Source: a virus (taxonomy: Duplodnaviria > Caudoviricetes). From it: a DNA stretch of 64,000 bases. Positions within the stretch are counted from its first letter, which is position 1, and each line of letters opens with the position of its first letter. The position numbers and the translations under genes are program-made. The stretch covers positions 8,723-72,722 of the IMG/VR virus record IMGVR_UViG_3300033120_000925. The stretch is one strand, 5' to 3'. This document shows, one piece after another, positions 51,605 to 64,000 of this stretch. The notes under the pieces were generated by a model, which did not search any database, was not told where the DNA came from, and saw only the letters and a program-made list of their open reading frames with translations.

Positions 51605-51970
51605 CTAAAACTCTTTCTTAACCAAAAGAAAAAAATCATCTTTTATCTCACAATACCCTTTATCGTAAACAAAATAATACTTGTTTCCAGTTTTAGCCTC
51701 CAAAAAACTTGTAAAAAATTCAAAATCAAAACCTTTTTTCTTCAAAAGTTTACGTTCTACTTTTGGATTTTCGCATACATTTAATTCAGTCAAAATACGA
51801 TAATTTTTACGTAGGCGATTGTTTATATTCCTCACTAAATTTGTAGCGTCTTTGTTTTGACGGTTATTGTACGTATTCCGGCACTTGTTGGAGCAAAACA
51901 TCTTATCTTCCCTTCCAAAAATTTCTTCTCCACATTCGGCACAAAATCGCTTTTCTTTTATTGGTTCCAT
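51605..51970 (-). CDS. DUF2116-like zinc-ribbon protein
   Basis: CAECGEEIFGREDKMFCSNKCRNTYNN. Confidence 0.7.
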   Translation of the reverse strand: MEPIKEKRFCAECGEEIFGREDKMFCSNKCRNTYNNRQNKDATNLVRNINNRLRKNYRILTELNVCENPKVERKLLKKKGFDFEFFTSFLEAKTGNKYYFVYDKGYCEIKDDFFLLVKKEF

Positions 51971-53202
51971 TGTCGTTTCATTATTTCGGCATATTCTACC
52001 TTACTTGTTTTATTGTAGTGGTCTAATTGGGAGCTTTTTTTACTCCAGCCACAAATTGATTTTATCACGGCATCATCTACCTTGCCATAGTTATTCGTAG
52101 CAAAACTTCGGCGACAAACGTGTGACGAAATTAGTTTATATTTCTCGAAATACCCAACTTTTTTTCTTTTTAAAACTTTATCGAACAATTTACCGTAAAC
52201 CAAATTATCTATTTCGCATACTTGGCAAATGGTTTTAATGTGCTTGTTAAAATCCGAACTGCTTATTTTTTGGGGTAAATATCCAAAATTATCATTTAGT
52301 AATTTTTCTACTTGAAAATGAATCGGGATAACTACCTTAGCTTTTGTTTTTTGAGTTTTAATTGTAAAATTACCATCCTTTATATTATTTGCATCAAGTT
52401 TCAAAAAGTCACTCACACGAAGTCCTGTAAATAATCCCAAAATAAAGTTTTGCTTTGCAACGTTCAATTCTTCGTCATACGAAAAATCCTTGTCGATTAT
52501 CTTCTGGATTTCCTGCTCATTCAAATAAACTCCCTCAATATCATTTTCGGGATCGAAATAAATTCTTTCCTTAAATGCTTGACTTACTTCAAAATCCATT
52601 TCTGTAGCACGATTAAAAAAGAAGCGCAATCTACCTATGTTTCTTTCTATCGTAGAGTTTTGGTAGTTTTCGGTTTCCTGCCAATCGATAAATCCCTCCA
52701 AATCTTTTTTGGTATTGTTACGAAGCGTGATTTTCTCTCCTATTACTTTTTCGTATTCCACAAGAGTTTCGACGAATTTCTTGTATTGGTTCTTCGCCGG
52801 TTCTTCCATTTTCTTTTTGGCCGAAACTTTCCAGTCCGAGGAAAAATTTTCCAACCAATATGTAGCAAAGTCCGAAACGTAAATCGTATGTAATGGACTT
52901 ACCATCGAAATTTCCTCTTTCGGGCGCATAAATGTAGTTTTAATTACCTTTTGCAACCAAATCTTATCAATCAAAACTCCACGGCAAAAGTCTTTATTGT
53001 ATTGCTTTAAAATATCCGTTTTAAGCTCTTGTAAAGCAATAGTCACTTCATTATTCCCTACAACAGTTTCCGTCGCAGAAACCCATTCAGAATCCGTCAG
53101 CATCACGTTTATCGCTGCCGACACGTCCAACTTATGATGATAGAAGCGAACAGATAATTTCTTTATCGCCTTTGTTCCGTTTAATGTGAATTTGATATTC
53201 AT
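51958..53202 (-). CDS. int: tyrosine recombinase/integrase, Bacteroidota phage/MGE type
   Basis: Full catalytic set: TGLRVSD (R), KTQKT (K), SHVCRR (HxxR), CGWS (W), DHY (Y); arm-binding-like N-terminus. Confidence 0.95.
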   Translation of the reverse strand: MNIKFTLNGTKAIKKLSVRFYHHKLDVSAAINVMLTDSEWVSATETVVGNNEVTIALQELKTDILKQYNKDFCRGVLIDKIWLQKVIKTTFMRPKEEISMVSPLHTIYVSDFATYWLENFSSDWKVSAKKKMEEPAKNQYKKFVETLVEYEKVIGEKITLRNNTKKDLEGFIDWQETENYQNSTIERNIGRLRFFFNRATEMDFEVSQAFKERIYFDPENDIEGVYLNEQEIQKIIDKDFSYDEELNVAKQNFILGLFTGLRVSDFLKLDANNIKDGNFTIKTQKTKAKVVIPIHFQVEKLLNDNFGYLPQKISSSDFNKHIKTICQVCEIDNLVYGKLFDKVLKRKKVGYFEKYKLISSHVCRRSFATNNYGKVDDAVIKSICGWSKKSSQLDHYNKTSKVEYAEIMKRQWNQ

Positions 53203-54332: not shown

Positions 54333-54463
54333 TGATAACGTTTTGCGTGTATAAGAAGTGGCGGATTAGAACTCCAAAACTTTCAGAAAGCACGAAACTG
54401 AAATAGAAAAACAGAACTTAAATTAATAACAAAACTAACGCTGAAATGTAGCTGTTGTTACAG
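54333..54463 (+). repeat. attC-like site A (chimeric, arms do not pair)
   Basis: TGATAAC...GTTACAG; left arm resembles site D, right arm resembles site C. Confidence 0.6.
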
Positions 54464-54487
54464 GACGGCACTAAAATCAAATAAAAA

Positions 54488-54757
54488 ATGGGAACATTAA
54501 GAAACTTAAAAGGAACTTCTGTAGAAGAAATTGAATGTGAATTTATCACAAAACCATCTGAAATAAAAGATGTTTTAAAAAACGGAAAAGCCTGTACTGC
54601 TGCTGACAGCAATGGTGCGATTAATATATGGAAAGATGATAACGGATTAATTCGTTGTGAATCTATGGCGTATTATCGCTCTCTTGATACAAAAGAATTT
54701 GAAAATATTAAGGACGTAGAAAATTGGGCTAAAAAATGGCTTCGCAAGATAAAGTAA
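54488..54757 (+). CDS. cassette ORF, hypothetical
   Basis: Flanked by GTTACAGGAC / GTCCTGTAAC. Confidence 0.7.
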   Translation: MGTLRNLKGTSVEEIECEFITKPSEIKDVLKNGKACTAADSNGAINIWKDDNGLIRCESMAYYRSLDTKEFENIKDVENWAKKWLRKIK

Positions 54758-54773
54758 TGTTGCTCTCGCTGTC

Positions 54774-55007
54774 CTGTAACGGGCTCCGGCTTGTTCGTCG
54801 TTCCGAGAGGAGCTTGCTCCGAAGCGGAATGCGTACAAGCCGGTGATGGGGAAAAGGGGCGTTCCGCTCACCAAGGCGAAGCCGGAGCCCGATGGAGTGC
54901 AGCCCGGAGGGATGTACTCCATCGGTCTAGCTTGTAGCTGTATGCCAAGATAGAACGTGAATAGAAAGAAAATAGTCATAGCATATAGCTACAAGCGTAT
55001 GTTAGGG
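54774..55007 (+). repeat. attC-like site B containing a GC-rich multi-hairpin module
   Basis: CTGTAAC...GTTAGGG, 234 bp; nested stems; 76 nt (54777-54852) identical to 63925-64000. Confidence 0.7.
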
Positions 55008-55100
55008 TTCGTTGCGGATGATTAAAGAAGGTTTCATCGAGTACAAAAACGTCTCTCACGATTGAAAGATAAGGCGTTCCTTCATTTTTAAATTTATATT

Positions 55101-55445
55101 ATGAAATTAACAGATAAACAATTTAGGGTTTTAGAGTTTTTGATAAATAAAGGAAGAAATTATAATACTTCTGTTCACGGAACTATGCTGACTAAAATTA
55201 TCTATGATGAAGAAACTATTAAAAAATATTCTTTTGCTAGAACTGCTAAAATGGTAATTGACACAATGACTTTTTCTTATCTAGGAAAAATGTGTCGTGC
55301 AGATTTAATTGGCTCTGAATATCAAACTATTGGCGACTTGTCAAGTAGAACTAAAGGCTATTCATATTATTGTGGACATTATTGCACAAAAAAAGGCAAG
55401 GAAGCGTATGATGAATTTCTTTTGAAAACGAAAATAGAGCAATGA
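55101..55445 (+). CDS. cassette ORF, hypothetical (winged-helix-like)
   Basis: Stop abuts GAGCCCTAAC; LGKMCRADLI...CTKKGKEAY. Confidence 0.65.
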   Translation: MKLTDKQFRVLEFLINKGRNYNTSVHGTMLTKIIYDEETIKKYSFARTAKMVIDTMTFSYLGKMCRADLIGSEYQTIGDLSSRTKGYSYYCGHYCTKKGKEAYDEFLLKTKIEQ

Positions 55446-55446
55446 G

Positions 55447-55526
55447 CCCTAACGTTCTGCGGCTACAGTTTCGGCAGCCTATGTACAAAGTTGCTTTCGG
55501 CTGCTGAAATGTAGCCGTTGTTATGC
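55447..55526 (+). repeat. attC-like site C (short class, 80 bp)
   Basis: CCCTAAC; CGGCTACAGTTTCGGCAGCC / GGCTGCTGAAATGTAGCCG with one extra G; GTTATGC. Confidence 0.9.
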
Positions 55527-55569
55527 CTAGTACGGCAAAATAAAATATTAACAATAAATTAAAAGTAAA

Positions 55570-55815
55570 ATGATTAAAGTATTAAGACAAGAATCTTCTT
55601 TTTATAAAGAATTAGAAGCGTTTAACGCCTATATGGCAACAAGAAATATAGAAGTGCAAATGACACCCCACAACGGTATCATTTACAAAATTCAAGATAA
55701 ATATTATAAATATCTTCAAGATGGCGAATATCCAGAATCATTACCTCCTTTTTTAGATGGAAAATATGTTGAATGTGATTATTTTGGAAATACTGATTAC
55801 TACCAAGAATCGTAG
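55570..55815 (+). CDS. cassette ORF, hypothetical
   Basis: Stop TAG inside the AATCGTAGTATT end motif. Confidence 0.7.
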   Translation: MIKVLRQESSFYKELEAFNAYMATRNIEVQMTPHNGIIYKIQDKYYKYLQDGEYPESLPPFLDGKYVECDYFGNTDYYQES

Positions 55816-55821
55816 TATTAG

Positions 55822-55951
55822 GCATAACGTTTGCGTGTATGGTTAGTGCGGAAAAATAAGCCGAATCGCTCCATTCAAGACCGAGTAATCCAAGTACAGA
55901 CAGAACTTTAAAATAAACCTAATACCGCATTAACTATACAAGCTGTTAGCA
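55822..55951 (+). repeat. attC-like site D (130 bp)
   Basis: GCATAAC; TGTATGGTTAGTGCGG / CCGCATTAACTATACA; GTTAGCA. Confidence 0.85.
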
Positions 55952-55963
55952 GCAGTTAAATTT

Positions 55964-56170
55964 ATGAAAACAATTATCATCGAACAGGCGATTTATAAAG
56001 TAACAGATAGAGAATTTAATGTTATAAAAGCAATGCAACAAAAAATAAAAAATGAAGCTACAGATTATAAAGCGTGTTTTAAAGCAGAAGATGAACTTAA
56101 CGAGTATTTAGATGTAGCGAAAACTCTTTATAAATTCGTAGGAACGGTTGATTTTCATTGTCAGCGTTAA
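55964..56170 (+). CDS. cassette ORF, hypothetical
   Basis: Between paired cassette ends. Confidence 0.7.
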   Translation: MKTIIIEQAIYKVTDREFNVIKAMQQKIKNEATDYKACFKAEDELNEYLDVAKTLYKFVGTVDFHCQR

Positions 56171-56174
56171 TTGC

Positions 56175-56306
56175 TGCTAACGTTCTGGCACTACAACGGG
56201 TTTGGGGTTAAAAATGCGTAATCTTTCGGTTATGTCTAATAATTACAAGCACAAAACAATAATTCAGAAAGTCCAATGCCCAAATCCGTTGTAGTGGCTG
56301 TTATGC
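56175..56306 (+). repeat. attC-like site E (132 bp)
   Basis: TGCTAAC; CACTACAACGGGTTTGGG / CCCAAATCCGTTGTAGTG; GTTATGC. Confidence 0.9.
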
Positions 56307-56348
56307 GTTCGGCTTTTTAAAACTAAATATTAATCAAAAAATAATAAA

Positions 56349-56666
56349 ATGAATACGGAAAAACAAAAAGAATTTTTAGAGTTAAAGACTAAACTACTAA
56401 ATGAAATTGAATATCGAGAAGGTGTTTTAAGACAATTAAATTTCGATTCAAATAGAGAAAAAGGATTTGTTTCTACTTTTTTAAAAGGATTTTTAAAGCA
56501 CAAAAAACAAGCTCCTAATTTATTCTGGAAAGATGGCGAAACTTACGGAAGATATTTAATTGATGCTGATAAAGAATTACATAAAGATATTGCATTAGCT
56601 TTTGAAAAATCAATTGAAAAACTAAAACGTGATTATAACGATTCGGTTCTGGAAGCTGACGCATAA
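56349..56666 (+). CDS. cassette ORF, hypothetical
   Basis: TAA stop lies inside GCATAAC. Confidence 0.7.
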   Translation: MNTEKQKEFLELKTKLLNEIEYREGVLRQLNFDSNREKGFVSTFLKGFLKHKKQAPNLFWKDGETYGRYLIDADKELHKDIALAFEKSIEKLKRDYNDSVLEADA

Positions 56667-56794
56667 CGGCGGAGGCTTTGTGATGTTGCCTTGAAAACAC
56701 ACCTAAAACTTTAAATTAAAAACAAATGAATCAAGAAAAAAACAATGTTTCAATTAATAACCAATCAGGCAATAGCACAAAACCTATGTTACAA
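56661..56794 (+). repeat. attC-like site F (134 bp)
   Basis: GCATAAC; AGGCTTTGTGATGTTGCCT / AGGCAATAGCACAAAACCT; GTTACAA. Confidence 0.8.
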
Positions 56795-57046
56795 GACGTT
56801 ACTCTTGTGAAAACGGATTTTAAACTTACTGGATTAGGGAGAAAAAAATCAATGACTTGCGAGCCATTAAATAACCAAAACATATTCTGGCCCAAAGTTG
56901 GATTAAGCCAAGACAGATTTGATGCGTTATGGGATTATTTTAAAGGAAATAAGCCAATGCAAATGATTGCTGAAATTGAACACGAAGGACTTTATGAAGA
57001 CGGAACCCCTATTAACGGAAATGTTGTAGGTGTACGTGATTTGTAA
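56726..57046 (+). CDS. cassette ORF starting in the site F loop
   Basis: ATG 56726 in the loop; a second ATG overlaps the GTTA core (ATG TTA). Confidence 0.65.
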   Translation: MNQEKNNVSINNQSGNSTKPMLQDVTLVKTDFKLTGLGRKKSMTCEPLNNQNIFWPKVGLSQDRFDALWDYFKGNKPMQMIAEIEHEGLYEDGTPINGNVVGVRDL

Positions 57047-57050
57047 TGTC

Positions 57051-57127
57051 TTGTAACGTTTGTCGCTTGTACTAGGCGGCTATGCGGTTGCGTATATTCT
57101 GCCGCTTAGTACAAACGATTGTTAGGA
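57051..57127 (+). repeat. attC-like site G (short class, 77 bp)
   Basis: TTGTAAC; TCGCTTGTACTAGGCGGC / GCCGCTTAGTACAAACGA; GTTAGGA. Confidence 0.9.
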
Positions 57128-57164
57128 GAATACCACTAAACACTAATTTAAAAACATATTTAAA

Positions 57165-57545
57165 ATGACAAAACAAGAAAAAATTAAAAAAGAATGGGGT
57201 AGTTTTTACACAGATAAAGTAAGCCCTGATGGATGGTTAAATATTCATCCAAAAAATTATTCAAATGATGAATTGTTTGATAGATTAAAATTTAATTCAG
57301 AAAGAGATTCAATTCGTCCTAAAACATTACAAGGAGTAGAACACAATCACGGTTGGACTAAAATTGAAAAAGAATCTGATTTACCTACAATTGGAGAATA
57401 TTATACGATTGCAAGTTTTGATAATTTAATCGTAGAAAGAGAGTTTCCGCACCCTAAATTTTCTTTAGAATTTAATAAAGAATGGTGGTTAAAATATATT
57501 ACCCACTATCAACAAATTATTAAGCCAGAGAAGCCACTATACTAG
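57165..57545 (+). CDS. cassette ORF, phage-type hypothetical
   Basis: GWTKIEKESDLP...ITHYQQI (DUF551-like ends). Confidence 0.7.
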   Translation: MTKQEKIKKEWGSFYTDKVSPDGWLNIHPKNYSNDELFDRLKFNSERDSIRPKTLQGVEHNHGWTKIEKESDLPTIGEYYTIASFDNLIVEREFPHPKFSLEFNKEWWLKYITHYQQIIKPEKPLY

Positions 57546-57553
57546 GCGGTTTC

Positions 57554-57675
57554 TCCTAACGTTACATCGCTTGGCTTAGTGCCGAGTTATGAAAACAATA
57601 ATTTCTAATTAAAAATAAACGTGATGAAAAACGATAAAAACGAAAATAAGGCATTGAGCCAAACGAGTGTTAGCA
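57554..57675 (+). repeat. attC-like site H (122 bp)
   Basis: TCCTAAC; TCGCTTGGCTTAGTGCC / GGCATTGAGCCAAACGA; GTTAGCA. Confidence 0.85.
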
Positions 57676-58046
57676 GTAGTGTTTTTTCTTTTGATGATTT
57701 TGATAAACTTATGAATACTAAAGAAGAAATACAAGAACTAATTAATATGCCTAAAGATGAATTTGTAGAAAAAACTAAAAAACTTCTTAACTACATATCA
57801 GACCAATATTCTAAAGGTTGGAAATCAAAAAGACTAACAGAAGAAGAATATCCTGAAGAAAGTGTTTGCGATAAATGTACAGGATGCGGAACTTTTAAAT
57901 TTAATGGAGAAGACGATGAATGTGTTGCAGACCGAGAAGAGGGCGAATGTTATGTTAGATATTTTGATGCTGAGGAATTTGGATTAGAAATTGAAGCAAC
58001 TATGGATGATGTTTATGAACTTCTTTTTATAGACAATATTGAGTAA
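57621..58046 (+). CDS. cassette ORF starting in the site H loop, Cys-containing
   Basis: Leader KALSQTSVSSS read through the hairpin arm; CDKCTGC motif. Confidence 0.65.
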   Translation: MMKNDKNENKALSQTSVSSSVFSFDDFDKLMNTKEEIQELINMPKDEFVEKTKKLLNYISDQYSKGWKSKRLTEEEYPEESVCDKCTGCGTFKFNGEDDECVADREEGECYVRYFDAEEFGLEIEATMDDVYELLFIDNIE

Positions 58047-58052
58047 CATTAC

Positions 58053-58183
58053 TGCTAACGCTTTGCTACTACAAGCAGTAGCGGACAAATAAAGACTAAT
58101 TCTCGGATAATTATAAATTATCCAAACACAAAACAATAATAACCAAAGCCAGATTAAGCTATTGATTGTAGTAGCTGTTATAT
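58053..58183 (+). repeat. attC-like site I (131 bp)
   Basis: TGCTAAC; GCTACTACAAGCAGTAGC / GCTATTGATTGTAGTAGC; GTTATAT. Confidence 0.85.
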
Positions 58184-58220
58184 TCTCGGCTTTTTTTTAC
58201 TAACAAATTAAATTAAAAAA

Positions 58221-58400
58221 ATGGAAATAGAAGATATTGAAGTAATAGTAATGATTGTTCAATTCAAAGATGGTTCTGCGCATCAAGTTTTGACATCAAA
58301 AGAAAATAAAAAAATAGCCTTGCAAATAATCGCAAGTGCTGATGGAAAATTAACGATTGATAAAGAACTCGCTCCTGTTGTATTCGAGTATGCAGAGTAG
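58221..58400 (+). CDS. cassette ORF (59 aa)
   Basis: MEIEDIEVIVMIVQFKDGSAHQVL...FEYAE, below the track cutoff. Confidence 0.65.
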   Translation: MEIEDIEVIVMIVQFKDGSAHQVLTSKENKKIALQIIASADGKLTIDKELAPVVFEYAE

Positions 58401-58429
58401 ATTTTGACGCAAAGTTGCTAGAAGCTGGA

Positions 58430-58436
58430 ATATAAC
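58430..58436 (+). repeat. half site J (left core only, hairpin missing)
   Basis: GAATATAAC complements the cassette start GTTATATTC at 58177; no hairpin or GTTA follows. Confidence 0.6.
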
Positions 58437-58468
58437 TACTTGCTTTGCGCATAAAATGTATTACAAAG

Positions 58469-58648
58469 ATGAAACAATACACAAAAACAAAGGTAATTCG
58501 CATTACAGAAACACAACACCAAACACTGGTAAAAATGCAATCTTACAATGTTGATGTAGCCGATTTTATCCGAAACGCAATATCTGAAAAAATAAAAAGG
58601 GAGTATAAGGACTTGATGCCGAAAGTTAAAAATGATTGCCCTTTCTAA
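58469..58648 (+). CDS. ribbon-helix-helix-like protein
   Basis: KTKVIRITETQHQTL...VDVADFIRNAISEKI. Confidence 0.6.
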   Translation: MKQYTKTKVIRITETQHQTLVKMQSYNVDVADFIRNAISEKIKREYKDLMPKVKNDCPF

Positions 58649-58701
58649 AACTCGGCAACTTAAACCATGCTAAAATACCAATTATTAAAACTAAAAATAA
58701 A

Positions 58702-58950
58702 ATGGAAAAAGAAATTAAAGAATTGATTAGAAACAATGGGAATGATTTAATGCGTTGGACTGAAAAAAGAGATAATTTAAGAAATAAAATTAAATTTTGC
58801 TCGGATCATAAATTCGAAGAGGAAGTAAGGATGTCACTTTCAAAATTAGAATCTATGGAAGGTGTTATTTATGATTATGAGCAAATGATTAAAGACTTGA
58901 AAATAATCTTAAAATCTTACCAAAATGATATTGCTGCGACTGAATCGTAG
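58702..58950 (+). CDS. cassette ORF, coiled coil
   Basis: Stop TAG inside the AATCGTAGTATT end motif. Confidence 0.65.
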   Translation: MEKEIKELIRNNGNDLMRWTEKRDNLRNKIKFCSDHKFEEEVRMSLSKLESMEGVIYDYEQMIKDLKIILKSYQNDIAATES

Positions 58951-58956
58951 TATTAG

Positions 58957-59033
58957 GCATAACGTTAAAACTATACTGCGGTTGCCTATGCGGTTTAGTA
59001 GATTCGGCAACTGCTGTATAGTGATTGTTACCA
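58957..59033 (+). repeat. attC-like site K (short class, 77 bp)
   Basis: GCATAAC; CTATACTGCGGTTGCC / GGCAACTGCTGTATAG; GTTACCA. Confidence 0.85.
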
Positions 59034-59076
59034 GAAGTACGGCAATTATAATTTAACAATTTAAAACAATAATAAA

Positions 59077-59586
59077 ATGAAAAACATACACATATTACCA
59101 ACAAAAAACCAAAGTAGGTTGTATTTTGATGTAGTAACAAAAAAATTACTATTACAAGAAAGATTAAGTCTTAATGCGACTTGTTTTCCAATTGAAAAAA
59201 GAAACATCTACATCACTAATGATGAAGAAATTAAAGATGAAGATTGGACATTAAAATTTCCTTTCCAAAAGGAAATTTTCAAAAATATTGAAGTAAGTAT
59301 TAATGAATATGTAAAAAGAGCAAAACTACATACATACCCATATAATTGGTGTCAAAAAATTATCCTTACTACTGACCCTGATTTAATCAAAGATGGTGTA
59401 CAAGCTATTGATGATGAGTTCTTAGAGTGGTTTGTTAAGAATCCAAGTTGTGAGGAAGTTGAAGTTAAGTGGGTAAAAACACCTGATGGTATATTTTATA
59501 CAAATGATGTTCCTTATGGATGTTATAAAATCATCATTCCAAAAGAAATTGATACTTTAGAATTAGGACAAATTAAAATCTACTAA
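59077..59586 (+). CDS. cassette ORF, Bacteroidota-phage-type hypothetical
   Basis: First of three genes in one cassette. Confidence 0.75.
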   Translation: MKNIHILPTKNQSRLYFDVVTKKLLLQERLSLNATCFPIEKRNIYITNDEEIKDEDWTLKFPFQKEIFKNIEVSINEYVKRAKLHTYPYNWCQKIILTTDPDLIKDGVQAIDDEFLEWFVKNPSCEEVEVKWVKTPDGIFYTNDVPYGCYKIIIPKEIDTLELGQIKIY

Positions 59587-59588
59587 AT

Positions 59589-59915
59589 ATGAAAGAAAAA
59601 ACAATTAACATTCCAATTTACTTTGGAAAATTAAAAATCATTACCACAGATTCGTGGAGCAAAGTAAATCTACTTTATAACACAAAAATTGATTCAAAAC
59701 TTTATGATGCGGTTGTTTTTGAAATAAAAAACAATGATGAATACATAGTTGCAATCAAAAAAGTAGAATGGTCAATAATAGCTCACGAAGTTGTGCATAT
59801 TGTAAATGCAATATTCTTAAAATGCGGTGTTGAACTTGACAGACAAAACGACGAACCGCAAGCCTATTTAACAGGATGGATTATAAATGAAATAGATAAA
59901 TTTTTAAATAAATAA
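59589..59915 (+). CDS. HExxH zincin-like phage protein
   Basis: IAHEVVH...DEPQAYL. Confidence 0.6.
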   Translation: MKEKTINIPIYFGKLKIITTDSWSKVNLLYNTKIDSKLYDAVVFEIKNNDEYIVAIKKVEWSIIAHEVVHIVNAIFLKCGVELDRQNDEPQAYLTGWIINEIDKFLNK

Positions 59916-59917
59916 TT

Positions 59918-60436
59918 ATGACACCAAGAAGAAATAAATTATGGTTAAATACACCCGCAGAATTAGCGATTTTCAATGCTATTCAAGAAGTTGAAACAGT
60001 AGGTGCTGATGTTAGATTGACAGAAATTACAAATATGCTTGTAAAAGCAAAAGACTTATTATCTGATTATATTGACAATACTAAAGATTTGCAAGGAACT
60101 GAATTAGCTAAAAAAACTTTGTTTAAAATTACAGATAAATTACCCGACGGGGTTCTTTGGGGAAAAGCAAGAGAATATTCAAAACAATTTACCTCTTTCG
60201 AAAAACCAGTTCAAAGTGAAATTGCAATGAGTGAAGCACAAGACCATTATTATAGAGGAATGATTGATTTAAGAGATATGATTGAACAACAGAATAATGA
60301 AGCCGTAGAAATGCTTGACGGTTTAGTTTCTGATGTAGGGAATCTACTTTGTGATGTTGCTGATTTAGATTTTGAATGGCAACAAGCAGGATATTATGAA
60401 ACTGCTAAAAAATGGTTATTAGAAAACAAATCGTAG
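59918..60436 (+). CDS. cassette ORF, hypothetical
   Basis: Stop TAG inside the AATCGTAGTATT end motif. Confidence 0.7.
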   Translation: MTPRRNKLWLNTPAELAIFNAIQEVETVGADVRLTEITNMLVKAKDLLSDYIDNTKDLQGTELAKKTLFKITDKLPDGVLWGKAREYSKQFTSFEKPVQSEIAMSEAQDHYYRGMIDLRDMIEQQNNEAVEMLDGLVSDVGNLLCDVADLDFEWQQAGYYETAKKWLLENKS

Positions 60437-60442
60437 TATTTC

Positions 60443-60573
60443 TGGTAACGTTGAAGCATTGTTGCAGTTGTGTATTAGGACTGCCAAATTATCGATTTAA
60501 AACTAACCAACCAAGTACAAAAACAATTATTAATCAAGCCAATTGCCACAATTGCTACAATGCATTGTTATAT
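60443..60573 (+). repeat. attC-like site L (131 bp)
   Basis: TGGTAAC; GCATTGTTGCAGTTGTG / CACAATTGCTACAATGC; GTTATAT. Confidence 0.85.
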
Positions 60574-60597
60574 GCTGGCTTTTTAACACTAAAAATT

Positions 60598-60864
60598 ATG
60601 AAAAACTTTAAACAATTCAGAAGAAGTCAAATTGCAGAAATGCGAGAAGTAACAGAAAATGATATTAATGTATTTAAGAATCACGGATTTATACATATAT
60701 CAGAATATCCATTTGGTTTTAACATATCTATTTCTGATGCAGACAAAAACAATGGAAGTCCTAAAATTGGAGATATGATTGCAAGGAATCCAAAAGACTA
60801 TTCAGACCAATGGTTAGTAGCTGAACAATATTTCAAAGATAATTTTGAGAAGTTAGTTGAGTAA
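60598..60864 (+). CDS. cassette ORF, phage-type hypothetical
   Basis: MKNFKQFRRSQIAEMR...GDMIARNPKDYSDQWLVAEQYFKDNF. Confidence 0.75.
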   Translation: MKNFKQFRRSQIAEMREVTENDINVFKNHGFIHISEYPFGFNISISDADKNNGSPKIGDMIARNPKDYSDQWLVAEQYFKDNFEKLVE

Positions 60865-60870
60865 GCTATC

Positions 60871-60993
60871 ATATAACGTTTCTCGGCTTTGTTTAGTGCC
60901 GACTTAGAAAAACTAAACTTTCAACTTAAATAATATATCTTATGAAAACAGAAAATAACGAAAACCAGGCATTGAACAAAACCGATGTTAGCA
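60871..60993 (+). repeat. attC-like site M (123 bp)
   Basis: ATATAAC; TCGGCTTTGTTTAGTGCC / GGCATTGAACAAAACCGA; GTTAGCA. Confidence 0.85.
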
Positions 60994-61178
60994 GCAGTGC
61001 GAGGTATATAATTATTGACGAAAGCCTTTCAGGACATTGCTGTTTTGAATTTACAATAATTGACACAGCAGCAGGTAAGGAAGATTATGGAGATTACTGG
61101 AAACGCTCAATGTGTGAAACATTTTATAGAGCAGAAGCAGAAATTATATGTGACGCTCTCAATAAGCATTGTTGCTAA
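60942..61178 (+). CDS. cassette ORF starting in the site M loop
   Basis: Leader QALNKTDVSSS; TAA stop inside the next TGCTAAC. Confidence 0.7.
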   Translation: MKTENNENQALNKTDVSSSARYIIIDESLSGHCCFEFTIIDTAAGKEDYGDYWKRSMCETFYRAEAEIICDALNKHCC

Positions 61179-61251
61179 CGTTCCGCAGCTACACGATGCC
61201 AGCCTATGCGGTTGCTATATTTCGGCTGGTATTGTGTAACTGCTGTTAGTA
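61173..61251 (+). repeat. attC-like site N (short class, 79 bp)
   Basis: TGCTAAC; GCAGCTACACGATGCCAGCC / GGCTGGTATTGTGTAACTGC; GTTAGTA. Confidence 0.9.
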
Positions 61252-61297
61252 GCTGTTTTTTTATTTTACATTTATTTTAAAAATATTTGTAATTTTA

Positions 61298-61328
61298 TTT
61301 GGTAGTTACAAAATTAGTCGTATATTTG
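61298..61328 (+). promoter_or_regulatory. host-type promoter inside a cassette
   Basis: TTTG 61298-61301, N19, TATATTTG 61321-61328. Confidence 0.75.
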
Positions 61329-61358
61329 TAAAAGAAATAACAACTAAAACAAATCAAA

Positions 61359-61556
61359 ATGAAAACATCTACTTATACTTACGAATTTGCAAATGGAACT
61401 TTTACTATCACAAAAGGAATAAAAACTAAATTTGATTGGTTTGTTTCTGTAAAGTTAAATGATGGTTTTATATCATTGAATCAAAATATTTTCTTAACAA
61501 AAAAAGAAGCGAAAAAAACAACTGAAAACTTACTAAACAAATACAAATTACTATGA
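61359..61556 (+). CDS. cassette ORF, hypothetical
   Basis: First gene after the internal promoter. Confidence 0.65.
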   Translation: MKTSTYTYEFANGTFTITKGIKTKFDWFVSVKLNDGFISLNQNIFLTKKEAKKTTENLLNKYKLL

Positions 61557-61906
61557 ATGAAAATTTTTATAAACAAGCTGTAAATAACTTTGAATTTAGA
61601 GCGAAAAGAATAAATAACGACATTGTTGTTTATGGACTACTTTCTTTTTATAATAATGAATTAGTTATAATTACAGAAGACAATAATGCATATCATATAA
61701 AACCTGATACGATTCAAGAATATACACGATTGAAAGATAAAAACAAAAATAAAGTTTTTGTTGGAGATAAAATAAAGCATTTTGAAGGACGTGAATTTGA
61801 AGTTGTTTTTTCAGATATAAAAGGAATTTTATTAAGTTCAATAAATGACAATGGAGAATATGCTAACGGTTATCCTTATTGGATTGATGATTGCGAAATA
61901 ATTTAG
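61553..61906 (+). CDS. YopX-family phage protein
   Basis: FEFRAK...VYG...IKPDTIQEYTRLKDKNKNKVFVGDKI. Confidence 0.75.
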   Translation: MNENFYKQAVNNFEFRAKRINNDIVVYGLLSFYNNELVIITEDNNAYHIKPDTIQEYTRLKDKNKNKVFVGDKIKHFEGREFEVVFSDIKGILLSSINDNGEYANGYPYWIDDCEII

Positions 61907-61911
61907 TAAAT

Positions 61912-62079
61912 ATGGAACGAAAAAATATTATAGTTTTCATTCAAAACGACCGAATAGAAACTTATGGAAATCTAAAAAAGTGTTGTGAGTTTGAAAATCT
62001 AAAATACCACACTTTAGCACGTTTAAAATTCCCAATTCGGATAAACGATGTAGTTATACACAAAACGTTGTTTAAATAG
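61912..62079 (+). CDS. small putative DNA-binding protein
   Basis: ETYGNLKKCCEFENLKYHTLARLKFP. Confidence 0.55.
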   Translation: MERKNIIVFIQNDRIETYGNLKKCCEFENLKYHTLARLKFPIRINDVVIHKTLFK

Positions 62080-62080
62080 C

Positions 62081-62213
62081 TACTGACGTATGGTGCTATA
62101 TTTCAGTAGCGGAAACACAAAACAATGCTTCGGTTGATGACCGAAAATAACAAGTACAAACAAATTATTGAATTTAACCCGATAACCGCTATTGAATATA
62201 GCAGTTGTTATAA
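62081..62213 (+). repeat. attC-like site O (133 bp, TGAC variant core)
   Basis: TACTGAC; GCTATATTTCAGTAGCGG / CCGCTATTGAATATAGC; GTTATAA. Confidence 0.8.
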
Positions 62214-62225
62214 GTAGCTTTTATT

Positions 62226-62507
62226 ATGATAACAGAATTTAATTTTACAAAAGAATGGCAAGAAGACAAACACAATTGGGTCGTTTTTTATGTTGAGAAT
62301 TTCCCAATAGATTTAAAAGTAGGTGATGAAATATGGATAAGTGATTTTAAACATCTATTTAAAAAAGGCGAATATTATTGTCCAGAAAATGAAATTTCAA
62401 ATGAATTTTTAGAAGAGTTTGATATTCCAGAAGGAAAAGTAACACATTTAAGGTATGGTTTACAAGACGGAAAAGTAGTTAAGATTTTAGAACTTTTGGC
62501 TACATAG
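62226..62507 (+). CDS. cassette ORF, hypothetical
   Basis: Between paired cassette ends. Confidence 0.7.
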   Translation: MITEFNFTKEWQEDKHNWVVFYVENFPIDLKVGDEIWISDFKHLFKKGEYYCPENEISNEFLEEFDIPEGKVTHLRYGLQDGKVVKILELLAT

Positions 62508-62521
62508 TTTGGTAAAGTTAC

Positions 62522-62653
62522 TTATAACGTTATCTCGCTTGGCGAGGTTGCTGACTTCGGAAAAATAAAACTTCAACTTAAAAATAAATATGATGCGAAA
62601 CGTGAACGTGAATAAACAACAAAATCAGCAATCTTGCCAAACGAGTGTTAGCG
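62522..62653 (+). repeat. attC-like site P (132 bp)
   Basis: TTATAAC; TCGCTTGGCGAGGTTGCTGA / TCAGCAATCTTGCCAAACGA; GTTAGCG. Confidence 0.9.
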
Positions 62654-62790
62654 GTTCGGTTACGGATGAGAACAATCGTAATTATGCTAAAAAAATATTG
62701 ATAAAATATATTCAAAGCGAAAGATTGCAATATAAACAAAAACAAGGAGATTATTCAATTGACGAATTATTAACAGAATTAGAAAAATAA
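62590..62790 (+). CDS. cassette ORF starting in the site P loop
   Basis: Leader QQSCQTSVSGS. Confidence 0.6.
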   Translation: MMRNVNVNKQQNQQSCQTSVSGSVTDENNRNYAKKILIKYIQSERLQYKQKQGDYSIDELLTELEK

Positions 62791-62792
62791 GT

Positions 62793-63362
62793 ATGGGAAG
62801 CATTAAAGGACAAAAACACAATCCTGAATTAGAAGGAAAATATGCTCACATAAACCCGAATGATGTGGTTTTTACGCCTGATTGGTTGGCGAAACAAATA
62901 GTATCAATGTTTGATATTAAAGGAAAAGTATTAGAACCGTGTAAAGGTGAGGGTGCGTTTTTAAATCACTTACCGAAAGATACAGAATGGTGTGAAATTG
63001 CAGAAGGTATAAACTATTATGATTATAATGAAAAAGTAGATTGGATTGTAACCAACCCACCTTATTCGGATTATAACAGGTTTCTTGAACATTCATTTGC
63101 ATTGGCTGATAATATTGTTTTATTAGTTCCTGTTGCGAAAATGTTTAAAAGTATGGGAACAATGAGCGATATATTTAATTATGGCGGATTTGTTGAAATA
63201 CACACATTGCCAAGTAGTAAAGCAGGATTTCCTTTTGGATTTCCAAGTGCGGTTTACTACTTAAAAAGGGGTTACAAAGGAGAAACTAAAATAAAAATGT
63301 TAGACGGAATTTCTTTTGAAAAGAAGAAGAAAAAAGCAAAAGTTTCTACTTTATTCGAGTAG
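62793..63362 (+). CDS. DNA N6-adenine (amino) methyltransferase, orphan
   Basis: DVVFTPDWLA, VLEPCKGEGAF (motif I), IVTNPPY (motif IV). Confidence 0.9.
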   Translation: MGSIKGQKHNPELEGKYAHINPNDVVFTPDWLAKQIVSMFDIKGKVLEPCKGEGAFLNHLPKDTEWCEIAEGINYYDYNEKVDWIVTNPPYSDYNRFLEHSFALADNIVLLVPVAKMFKSMGTMSDIFNYGGFVEIHTLPSSKAGFPFGFPSAVYYLKRGYKGETKIKMLDGISFEKKKKKAKVSTLFE

Positions 63363-63375
63363 TTGTTTAACTGAC

Positions 63376-63507
63376 TGCTAACGCCCTGTCGCTTGGCGAT
63401 GTGGCAAAAAAGTACACCCGAATTTTCGGATTATTACAAGTGCGTAAGGCACAAAACCAACTATAAATTAAACCTAAACTTGCCATATTGCCAAACGGCT
63501 GTTATGT
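63376..63507 (+). repeat. attC-like site Q (132 bp)
   Basis: TGCTAAC; GTCGCTTGGCGATGTGGCAA / TTGCCATATTGCCAAACGGC; GTTATGT. Confidence 0.9.
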
Positions 63508-63533
63508 GAGGTTGCGGGTAACTAAAACAAAGC

Positions 63534-63914
63534 GTGATGGAAAATAATTTATGCTCAAAATTCATAAAAAACTCATTAAGTGAAAACTATTGTGATAATT
63601 GCGGTAGAGAAGAATGGCATCATCCAAAGGAAAATGATTATAAAATGATTTTCTATAATGAGGGAATAAAAAGAGCTTCACAACATAATTTTAATCAAGC
63701 CGAAGCAGGTTATAATGCAAAATGGTTTAAAAGAGGAGCTATATTTGGGCGTATAGAAACACTAAAAGAAAATGAAGAATTATTAAACGCCCTATATCAA
63801 CTTGTTTCGTTAAAGAAATGGAAAGAAGAATTTGGAAAAGATGAATGGTATTTAGAAAAACAACCATTAGCTTGGAAAAATGCTGAAAAAGTTCTTATGG
63901 AATTTGAAATTTAG
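63534..63914 (+). CDS. cassette ORF with N-terminal Cys/His motif
   Basis: CSKF...CDNCGREEWHH. Confidence 0.7.
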   Translation: MMENNLCSKFIKNSLSENYCDNCGREEWHHPKENDYKMIFYNEGIKRASQHNFNQAEAGYNAKWFKRGAIFGRIETLKENEELLNALYQLVSLKKWKEEFGKDEWYLEKQPLAWKNAEKVLMEFEI

Positions 63915-63921
63915 CAATCTC

Positions 63922-64000
63922 ACATAACGGGCTCCGGCTTGTTCGTCGTTCCGAGAGGAGCTTGCTCCGAAGCGGAATGCGTACAAGCCGGTGATGGGGA
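63922..64000 (+). repeat. attC-like site R (GC-rich type, truncated by the window edge)
   Basis: ACATAAC then 72 nt identical to 54781-54852. Confidence 0.8.

Follow-up and report, generated by a model that had tools for sequence, protein, structure and literature searches.

Can a hairpin that looks like a recombination site also hold the start codon and the first residues of the gene behind it? This question is raised by a 72,722-bp phage-like contig of the Flavobacterium type (IMG/VR record IMGVR_UViG_3300033120_000925), of which bases 8723–72722 were analyzed; this whole stretch of 64,000 nucleotides (nt) is referred to as the window, and coordinates are those of the window unless another locus is named. 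The phage character of the contig is apparent from long structural-type open reading frames (ORFs) on the (−) strand, a GroEL-like gene, and a C5 methyltransferase. Toward its end, the window carries an array of small genes separated by imperfect hairpins, and a sequence-only reading had proposed that the genes behind four of these hairpins, F, H, M, and P, take their start codon and N-terminal peptide from the hairpin, so that the site doubles as a translation-initiation module. We found strong comparative support for this proposal in the open frame across such sites, the homologues of the proteins, and the context of the start codons, and we assign a probability of roughly 0.8 to the whole explanation, i.e., that the window holds an attC-like cassette array with "starter" sites supplying a start codon and a leader peptide.

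Four hairpins of the array contain the probable start of the gene behind them

The array occupies positions 54336–64000 of the (+) strand, reaches the contig end, and comprises ~17 sites that separate small genes. From ~54.3 kb onward, each small (+)-strand ORF is followed by an imperfect hairpin that starts with TAACG, ends with GTTA, and measures either 71–74 nt or 116–128 nt. About 4 of the ~17 sites (F, H, M, and P) are of the starter type, with an ATG inside the hairpin, and the remaining cassettes have an ATG of their own, located 16–95 nt past GTTA.

At all four starter loci, the A-rich loop of the TAACG…GTTA hairpin contains the ATG with which the ORF opens, and the ORF then reads through the right arm and the core, as had been proposed. 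In H, M, and P, the GTT of the core is read in frame as Val, followed by SSS or SGS, and the leaders described for these genes were confirmed. Specifically, site H (57557–57672, 116 nt) is a frame-0 starter with its GTT at 57669–57671, and ORF H (57624–58046, 140 amino acids [aa]) starts at the loop ATG and carries the leader MKNDKNENKALSQTSV, then SSS, then the body, giving the peptide ..KALSQTSVSSS; a GTG at 57621, also in the loop, is a possible alternative start (141-aa ORF). Near-identical copies of site H head many unrelated bodies. Site M (60874–60990, 117 nt), a second frame-0 starter established from its coordinates and fold, likewise precedes unrelated bodies in L004 and L005 (the prefix L denotes loci outside the window). 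Its ORF (60942–61178, 78 aa) encodes the leader MKTENNENQALNKTDV, then SSS and a Cys-rich body (..QALNKTDVSSS). Arm complementarity and folding define the frame-0 starter site P (62525–62650, 126 nt), from which ORF P (62593–62790, 65 aa) proceeds with the leader MRNVNVNKQQNQQSCQTSV, then SGS, then the body (..QQSCQTSVSGS); counted from ATG 62590, which lies in the same loop as ATG 62593, the product is 66 aa long. The same two features define site F (56664–56791, 128 nt), a frame-1 starter: the reading frame of ORF F (56726–57046, 106 aa) is offset by one base relative to H, M, and P, and its leader MNQEKNNVSINNQSGNSTKPMLQDVTL (56726–56806) spans the core, where the sequence ATG-TTA occurs at 56786–56791. 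All of these features are on the (+) strand.

Folded as single strands, the sites form an imperfect stem of 16–22 bp that is closed by TAAC/GTTA and topped by a loop of ~65 nt. An asymmetric internal loop lies by the core (6–7 nt in the left strand and 3 nt in the right), accompanied by one conserved C × A mismatch; the stems show no clear pair of extrahelical bases that would mark the recombining strand. In RNA folds, the 31 nt around each start are ~0.72–0.76 unpaired and the right arm is mostly paired. The loop motif TTTAAATTAAAAA, considered as a shared promoter, occurs at chance level within the window.

Start-codon context favors the loop ATGs

Start contexts were scored with a position weight matrix (PWM) trained on 53 long ORFs of the same genome, each represented by its first ATG (training mean, 6.0; mean of all ATGs, −5.4). 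The loop ATGs fell at the 95th–98th percentile, comparable to the own-start genes of the array, with scores of 8.8 for F at 56726 (97th percentile), 10.4 for H at 57624, 7.8 for M at 60942, and 6.95 for P at 62593. The other loop candidates scored −1.7 (GTG 57621 of H) and 1.6 (ATG 62590 of P). As for the ATG-TTA created by the core of F, to which the sequence-only reading had drawn attention, it is present, but as a start it is poor (−5.2, 53rd percentile). Since F-type relatives with the same leader type (L013 at 2600 and L028 at 2612) have CTG at this place, and the context is poor compared with that of the loop ATG, the core ATG is probably incidental, and ORF F likely starts at 56726.

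It could be argued instead that the loop ATGs are incidental and that translation begins at later ATGs or at non-ATG codons inside the bodies. ORF H does have a later in-frame ATG (M33 of the 141-aa ORF), and the GTG at 56807 of ORF F stands exactly at the Met position of leaderless homologues. However, ORF P has no in-frame ATG past the core, the next one in ORF M comes 41 codons past it, and initiation at M33 of H would remove the FDD(L/F)F region, which is conserved even in leaderless homologues. In F, the contexts of both the GTG and the core ATG are poor and that of the loop ATG is good. With the phase conservation and the decay of ancestral starts described below also standing against it, we consider downstream initiation very improbable. 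Translation of F, H, M, and P most likely begins in the loops, and starts at 56726, 57624, 60942, and 62593 would give peptides such as ..NENKALSQTSVSSSVF.

The open frame is kept in a fixed phase across the site family

Sites were collected from public viral and metagenome contigs with a pattern that covers the right arm only and is silent on the loop, and were filtered further for TAAC(G/C) 100–135 nt upstream, which yielded 96 unique sites. An in-frame, stop-free ATG was found inside 86 of them, at exactly −45 nt from GTT in 54 cases and at −51 nt in 18. Beyond the core, frame 0, in which GTT encodes Val, remained open for 30 or more codons in 89/96 sites, compared with 9/96 for frame 1 and 0/96 for frame 2, although the closure of frame 2 is due to a TAG contained in the search pattern. 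The leader was fused in frame to a body in 82 of the 86 sites, and in the other four the leader ORF ended after 10–12 codons. The 81 bodies behind a leader, from related uncultured phages, represent 54 families that are mutually unrelated at a BLASTP threshold of 1e-5. Such fixed-phase read-through in starter sites is not due to chance, and it would be unexpected if the leaders were untranslated and the bodies had starts of their own.

In a census independent of the pattern, the window and the first 33 loci gave 117 strict hairpins, 57 of which had an in-site ATG with an ORF of at least 30 codons past the core; the in-site ATGs were in frame 0 in 40 instances, in frame 1 in 15, and in frame 2 in 5. 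An in-frame ATG within 20 codons of the core, as a downstream start would require, was present in 15 of the 40 frame-0 bodies and missing from 25. At the beginning of three methyltransferase bodies, the sequence reads ..V SGS ALFQGDCL, ..V SRS TLLFGDCL, or ..V SDS AYFINKIYNEDCL, and a later start in these would cut the conserved first motif. The leader-motif search that had been suggested as a check was also productive: it returned many leader-bearing cassettes, located in hairpins. One starter site, L017 9983–10104 (also in L069 and L096), has ACG in place of ATG in front of an intact 443-codon body, which may be a silenced cassette or use a non-ATG start.

Outside the viral and metagenome contigs, the right-arm pattern had 17 matches in 185,579 prokaryote genomes, about the number expected by chance according to our own estimate. 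The sole hairpin-like site among them is a window-like site carried by an uncultured Flavobacterium metagenome-assembled genome (MAG; L161), and the repeated matches in the "Pseudomonadales NORP220" MAG and in Nitrososphaeraceae were rejected as other repeats without TAAC hairpins. A BLASTN search of sites H and M against 50,697 GenBank phage records gave no match.

Similarity to hairpin-free homologues begins just past the junction

If the hairpin provides the start, the similarity of a body to homologues elsewhere should begin just after the core, and this held for F, H, and M; P has leader-bearing relatives only. The M body occurs in two phage contigs, in L002 behind another leader (MENKSSITDESKALQQADV, with SSSARY following at the junction) and in L001 behind a right-arm remnant. 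Its homologue in a high-GC phage without hairpins (L003) starts MSQRYKVV, which aligns to SSARYIII. The H body has ~39 homologues; among those located in arrays, six or more different leaders occur, each with the ending ..V (S/T)SS VFSFDD. The leaderless H homologues have their own Met 3–6 residues past the junction (MKIDDFDNIF, MLYNFDDIF, and MDIDDFF) and sit in tight gene clusters without hairpins. In two such hairpin-free phages, an Acb2/Tad1-like anti-defence gene (PF24729) adjoins the leaderless H homologue (L034 1991–2212 and L035 493–714).

The F body offers a view of what happens to the old start. Twenty-eight homologues start MK(S/T)DFKL, and 18 have an N-terminal extension of at least eight residues; in 14 of these 18, the ancestral Met is replaced (by V, I, L, F, A, E, or R), the codon in the window being GTG 56807. 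Such loss is as expected if the old start had become dispensable, and the change to I, F, A, E, R, or L speaks against initiation at this position in leader-bearing proteins. All 25–30 homologues of the P body are leader-bearing, with several leader types including that of H, and the P-type leader is also found on other bodies (P0137 and P0139).

The outcome that would have contradicted the proposal, i.e., starts at ATGs inside the bodies together with homologues that have no link to hairpins, was not what we observed, as later ATGs are absent or would cut conserved residues. The suggestion that start-less gene fragments had been captured needs amending: the bodies are start-less, but they are whole proteins minus their Met, not fragments.

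The leader peptide is weakly constrained

Another possibility is that the leader is a functional peptide tag, e.g., a signal for virion packaging or injection, that is selected as protein and to which the hairpin is secondary. One leader type occurs on more than 54 unrelated small proteins, and the composition of the loop-encoded part stays hydrophilic (K/N/E/D/T). Moreover, across loop codons 2–8 of 33 unique sites of the −45 type, mean entropy was 0.50 at each of the first two codon positions and 0.87 at the third, which is somewhat more variable. Set against this are frequent amino acid replacements in the loop codons (N/T/K, N/K/I), arm codons that are fixed by pairing with the left arm, the existence of several leader families in two reading phases, and the occurrence of the same body with at least six very different leaders and with none. 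We regard selection as a tag as improbable. Because the coding signal is weak, the arm codons are fixed by pairing, and many leader types occur on one body, the comparisons suggest that the leader peptide is largely a by-product of the site sequence. The earlier idea of the shared leader as a protein-level tag thus stands as a search handle, but a peptide so weakly constrained is improbable as a functional tag.

Cassette flanks carry an integron-type footprint, and hairpins would usually travel with the gene behind them

In 206 cassettes, the 10 nt past GTT were compared with the reverse complement of the 10 nt that precede AAC in the following site, and 7.26 of 10 positions matched; the flank of the cassette's own site gave 3.88 of 10, a value equal to that of random pairs. 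In the window, the 5′ flank of the H body, GTTAGCAGTAGTG (57669–57681), pairs with its 3′ flank, CATTACTGCTAAC (58047–58059), which ends in the TAAC of site I. The two flanks of the H body co-vary, with GTTAGCAGT.../...ACTGCTAAC in one version and GTTACCAGT.../...ACTGGTAAC in another (the latter in L039 and L040). By analogy with integrons, this complementarity can be read as the cassette footprint of a circular or folded intermediate. It peaks at 9/10 and never reaches 10/10 in the 206 cassettes of all arrays, which suggests one systematically unpaired position in the extended core.

The hairpins might alternatively act mainly at the RNA level, as terminators, processing sites, or translational operators coupling a gene to the one upstream, with the mosaic edges arising through ordinary phage recombination at short conserved linkers. 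The geometry would suit coupling, with the upstream stop codon in the TAAC at the stem base and the start in an open loop; RecT-type annealing proteins occur in related contigs; and the recombination of the sites is itself deduced from sequence. Yet an excision/integration footprint in which the flank pairs, and co-varies, with the next site and not its own has no RNA rationale, and the breaks fall at exact bases, TAAC and GTT. A predominantly RNA-level role therefore appears unlikely to us, although such a role and the recombination reading are not mutually exclusive, as integron attC sites also affect translation (PMC8876359).

Where the same body was found in different contexts (15 informative pairs), the interior of the 3′ hairpin differed in all 15; for the 5′ hairpin, 5 pairs had the same interior, 7 were intermediate, and 3 differed. 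Three cleanly shared units extend exactly from the TAAC of the hairpin before the gene to the next TAAC (L086/L090, L007/L078, and L122 vs. site L plus ORF 60598–60864 of the window). The alternative offered by the sequence-only reading, that the hairpin belongs to the upstream cassette, is contradicted by both observations. The swapping of N termini envisaged there does occur, as breaks fall at GTT as well: the site that precedes the H body is of the H type in the window but of the M type in L038, with identical sequence from GTT onward, and the cassette starting at 61245 is preceded by three different hairpins in the window, L028, and L008. Site P shares 94% identity with L018 3001–3125, with both flanks unrelated. 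Because the 3′ interior is never kept, the 5′ interior often is, and breaks at GTT occur, a leader would appear usually to move with its body and sometimes to be exchanged.

The cassette at 61245 opens with a 106-bp promoter-like stretch (61245–61350) that has a TAnnTTTG-type motif and starts exactly at the GTT of site N. This stretch heads a three-gene cassette, and the hairpin in front differs in each phage; the stretch shares ~90% identity with Flavobacterium vB_FspS phages and is 94% identical in L028 and 88% identical in L008. The vB_FspS match is the sole near match of the region in the GenBank phage records.

The recombinase and other features of the array

A 414-aa tyrosine recombinase is encoded on the (−) strand at 51958–53202, divergently from the array (Pfam Phage_integrase, 1.9e-10), and an excisionase-like ORF and an HNH-AP2 endonuclease follow it on the (+) strand. 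The NCBIfam models that matched it were XerD, archaeal XerA, PRK00283, and XerC, all four far below their cut-offs; the archaeal XerA model is described as "tyrosine recombinase/integron integrase," and no dedicated bacterial integron-integrase model was among the NCBIfam matches. A 46%-identical homologue (L038 1245–2495) immediately follows the final cassette of a different array and is oriented like the cassettes there. The 414-aa protein is a candidate for the enzyme acting on the hairpin sites.

A Pfam search of the cassette proteins found no family, and an Rfam scan of 44–64 kb found no attC-type match, returning three unrelated sub-threshold matches near 51.5 kb. Scans of viral contigs for related loci with the H protein and with the recombinase returned nothing.

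Several array features fall outside the starter sites. The first array site (54336–54460) has a left arm like that of site D and a right arm like that of site C, which do not pair with each other; a hybrid origin or a role as an attI-like site of entry could explain this. The TAAC of site B is followed immediately by a GC-rich element of ~145 nt (54781–54925), of which another copy is divided between the two contig ends, so that the assembly breaks within the element. Site O (62084–62210) has TGAC in place of TAAC, and the same upstream gene ends ..CTACTAAC in L008 and L028; site O has probably decayed, leaving two cassettes fused.

Proposed mechanism and points that weigh against it

We propose that the TAACG…GTTA hairpins are integron-type (attC-like) recombination sites of a phage-borne cassette array. 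The A-rich starter loop of ~65 nt would contain a Bacteroidota-style initiation region lacking a Shine-Dalgarno sequence, an ATG, and an open frame of fixed phase. Frame 0 would read the arm and core as ..ALxxTxV, continue through the conserved 5′ flank as S-S/G-S, and enter the body; sites of the F type would work in the same way in a second phase (..KP(L/M), then LQDV). Because the frame runs from the loop through the core into the body, the gene would straddle the recombination core, and the body would have lost, or never had, a start codon of its own. The usual mobile unit would be a hairpin with its downstream gene, the mirror image of an integron cassette, and a rarer exchange at GTT would re-pair leaders and bodies. 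The hairpins would be substrates of a site-specific recombinase, perhaps the neighboring tyrosine recombinase.

A number of findings weigh against this interpretation. Related sites share descent, so that 96 sites are not 96 independent trials, and the loci were ascertained via the starter-type right arm, which inflates the counts of identical 5′ interiors, although this cannot explain why the 3′ interior is never kept. In L028, L094, L104, and L122, starter sites precede own-start cassettes and the leader ORF stops after 10–12 codons, and damaged leaders stand before intact long bodies in L017 (ACG for ATG), L115 (frameshift), and L121 (stop); these exceptions could be off-states, decay, or sequencing errors. 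The GTG at the ancestral start position of F could still initiate, and the entropy profile of the loop codons signals coding weakly. The recombinase does not belong to the IntI type, and both the recombination and the loop starts are inferred from sequence, the starts of database proteins being automatic gene calls.

More tentatively, we consider it possible that the starter hairpin is the head of a mirror-image cassette, in which site, initiation region, start codon, and leader form one module that accompanies its downstream gene and can also be joined, at GTT, to any in-phase ORF. Such a module would confer both mobility and expression on a start-less ORF in a single step, would be a concrete route for the birth of new cassettes, an open question for integrons, and would amount to a combinatorial kit of small phage proteins, probably for counter-defence. 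In the system as we propose it, a DNA hairpin sets the N termini of dozens of unrelated phage proteins, and gene callers and homology searches will mis-assign such starts or take leaders for homology. The leader or the right-arm pattern is a practical probe for arrays of this kind in metagenomes, and identification of the recombinase would make a direct test of cassette capture possible.

Comparison with known systems

Integrase-less attC clusters (CALINs) have been reported in phages, e.g., Polaribacter phage P12002L, with methyltransferase cassettes (Qi et al. 2023, PMC9892861). In our literature search, no paper was found on attC-like phage hairpins that contain start codons and leaders of cassette genes.

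The window array resembles integron arrays and CALINs in its imperfect hairpins of 71–128 nt with inverse cores (..TAAC/GTTA..) and in its one-directional series of small genes. Further likenesses to integrons are the complementarity of the first cassette bases to the flank of the next site (7.26/10), the divergent tyrosine recombinase beside the array, and the methyltransferase cassettes. Measured against the core definition of attC (RYYYAAC/GTTRRRY, palindrome of ~57–141 bp), the strict sites all run from TAAC(G/C) to GTT(A/G), with the RYYY and RRRY parts fitting loosely (e.g., TGCTAAC/GTTAGCA). Unlike integrons, the window array has no IntI-type integrase, and the hairpin interior was in no case kept together with the gene that precedes it (0/15), though often with the gene that follows. 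An integron cassette consists of a gene and its 3′ attC, with crossover only at G/TT (between G and TT), whereas here TAAC and GTT are both breakpoints, and about a third to a half of the phage sites hold the start codon and leader of the next gene, unlike integron attC.

A further parallel lies in ORF-11 and ORF-18 of attI1 in class 1 integrons and in short attC ORFs, which aid the translation of cassettes without initiation signals (PMC8876359). As with ORF-11, an ORF with its own initiation region lies inside the site and crosses the crossover point, since the loop ATG has a good context and GTT is read through. However, ORF-11 is located in a single attI, usually ends at a stop in the cassette core, and acts by translational coupling, while the phage ORF is present in many attC-like sites, is fused in a fixed phase to the cassette protein, and supplies the only start codon of that protein and 16–27 N-terminal residues.

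Two systems from outside the integron field share parts of this arrangement. The internal proteins of phage T4 carry a capsid-targeting leader that is a proven sorting and cleavage signal, encoded in a hyperplastic locus and outside any recombination hairpin. The likeness is that of a short conserved N-terminal leader on unrelated small phage proteins in a highly variable region; the leader described here differs in being weakly constrained, with its sequence dictated by the hairpin. In shufflons such as R64 pilV, the C terminus of one gene product is varied by the inversion of segments of that gene. Shufflons likewise have recombination sites inside a coding region and join one N-terminal part to alternative downstream segments, but in the phage array whole unrelated proteins are joined to a short leader. 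Integron cassettes are viewed as promoterless genes followed by their own site, and their origin, as well as their expression without initiation signals, is open. In the phage system, the site would stand before the gene with the start of the protein built in, so that recombination and initiation share ~120 nt of DNA.

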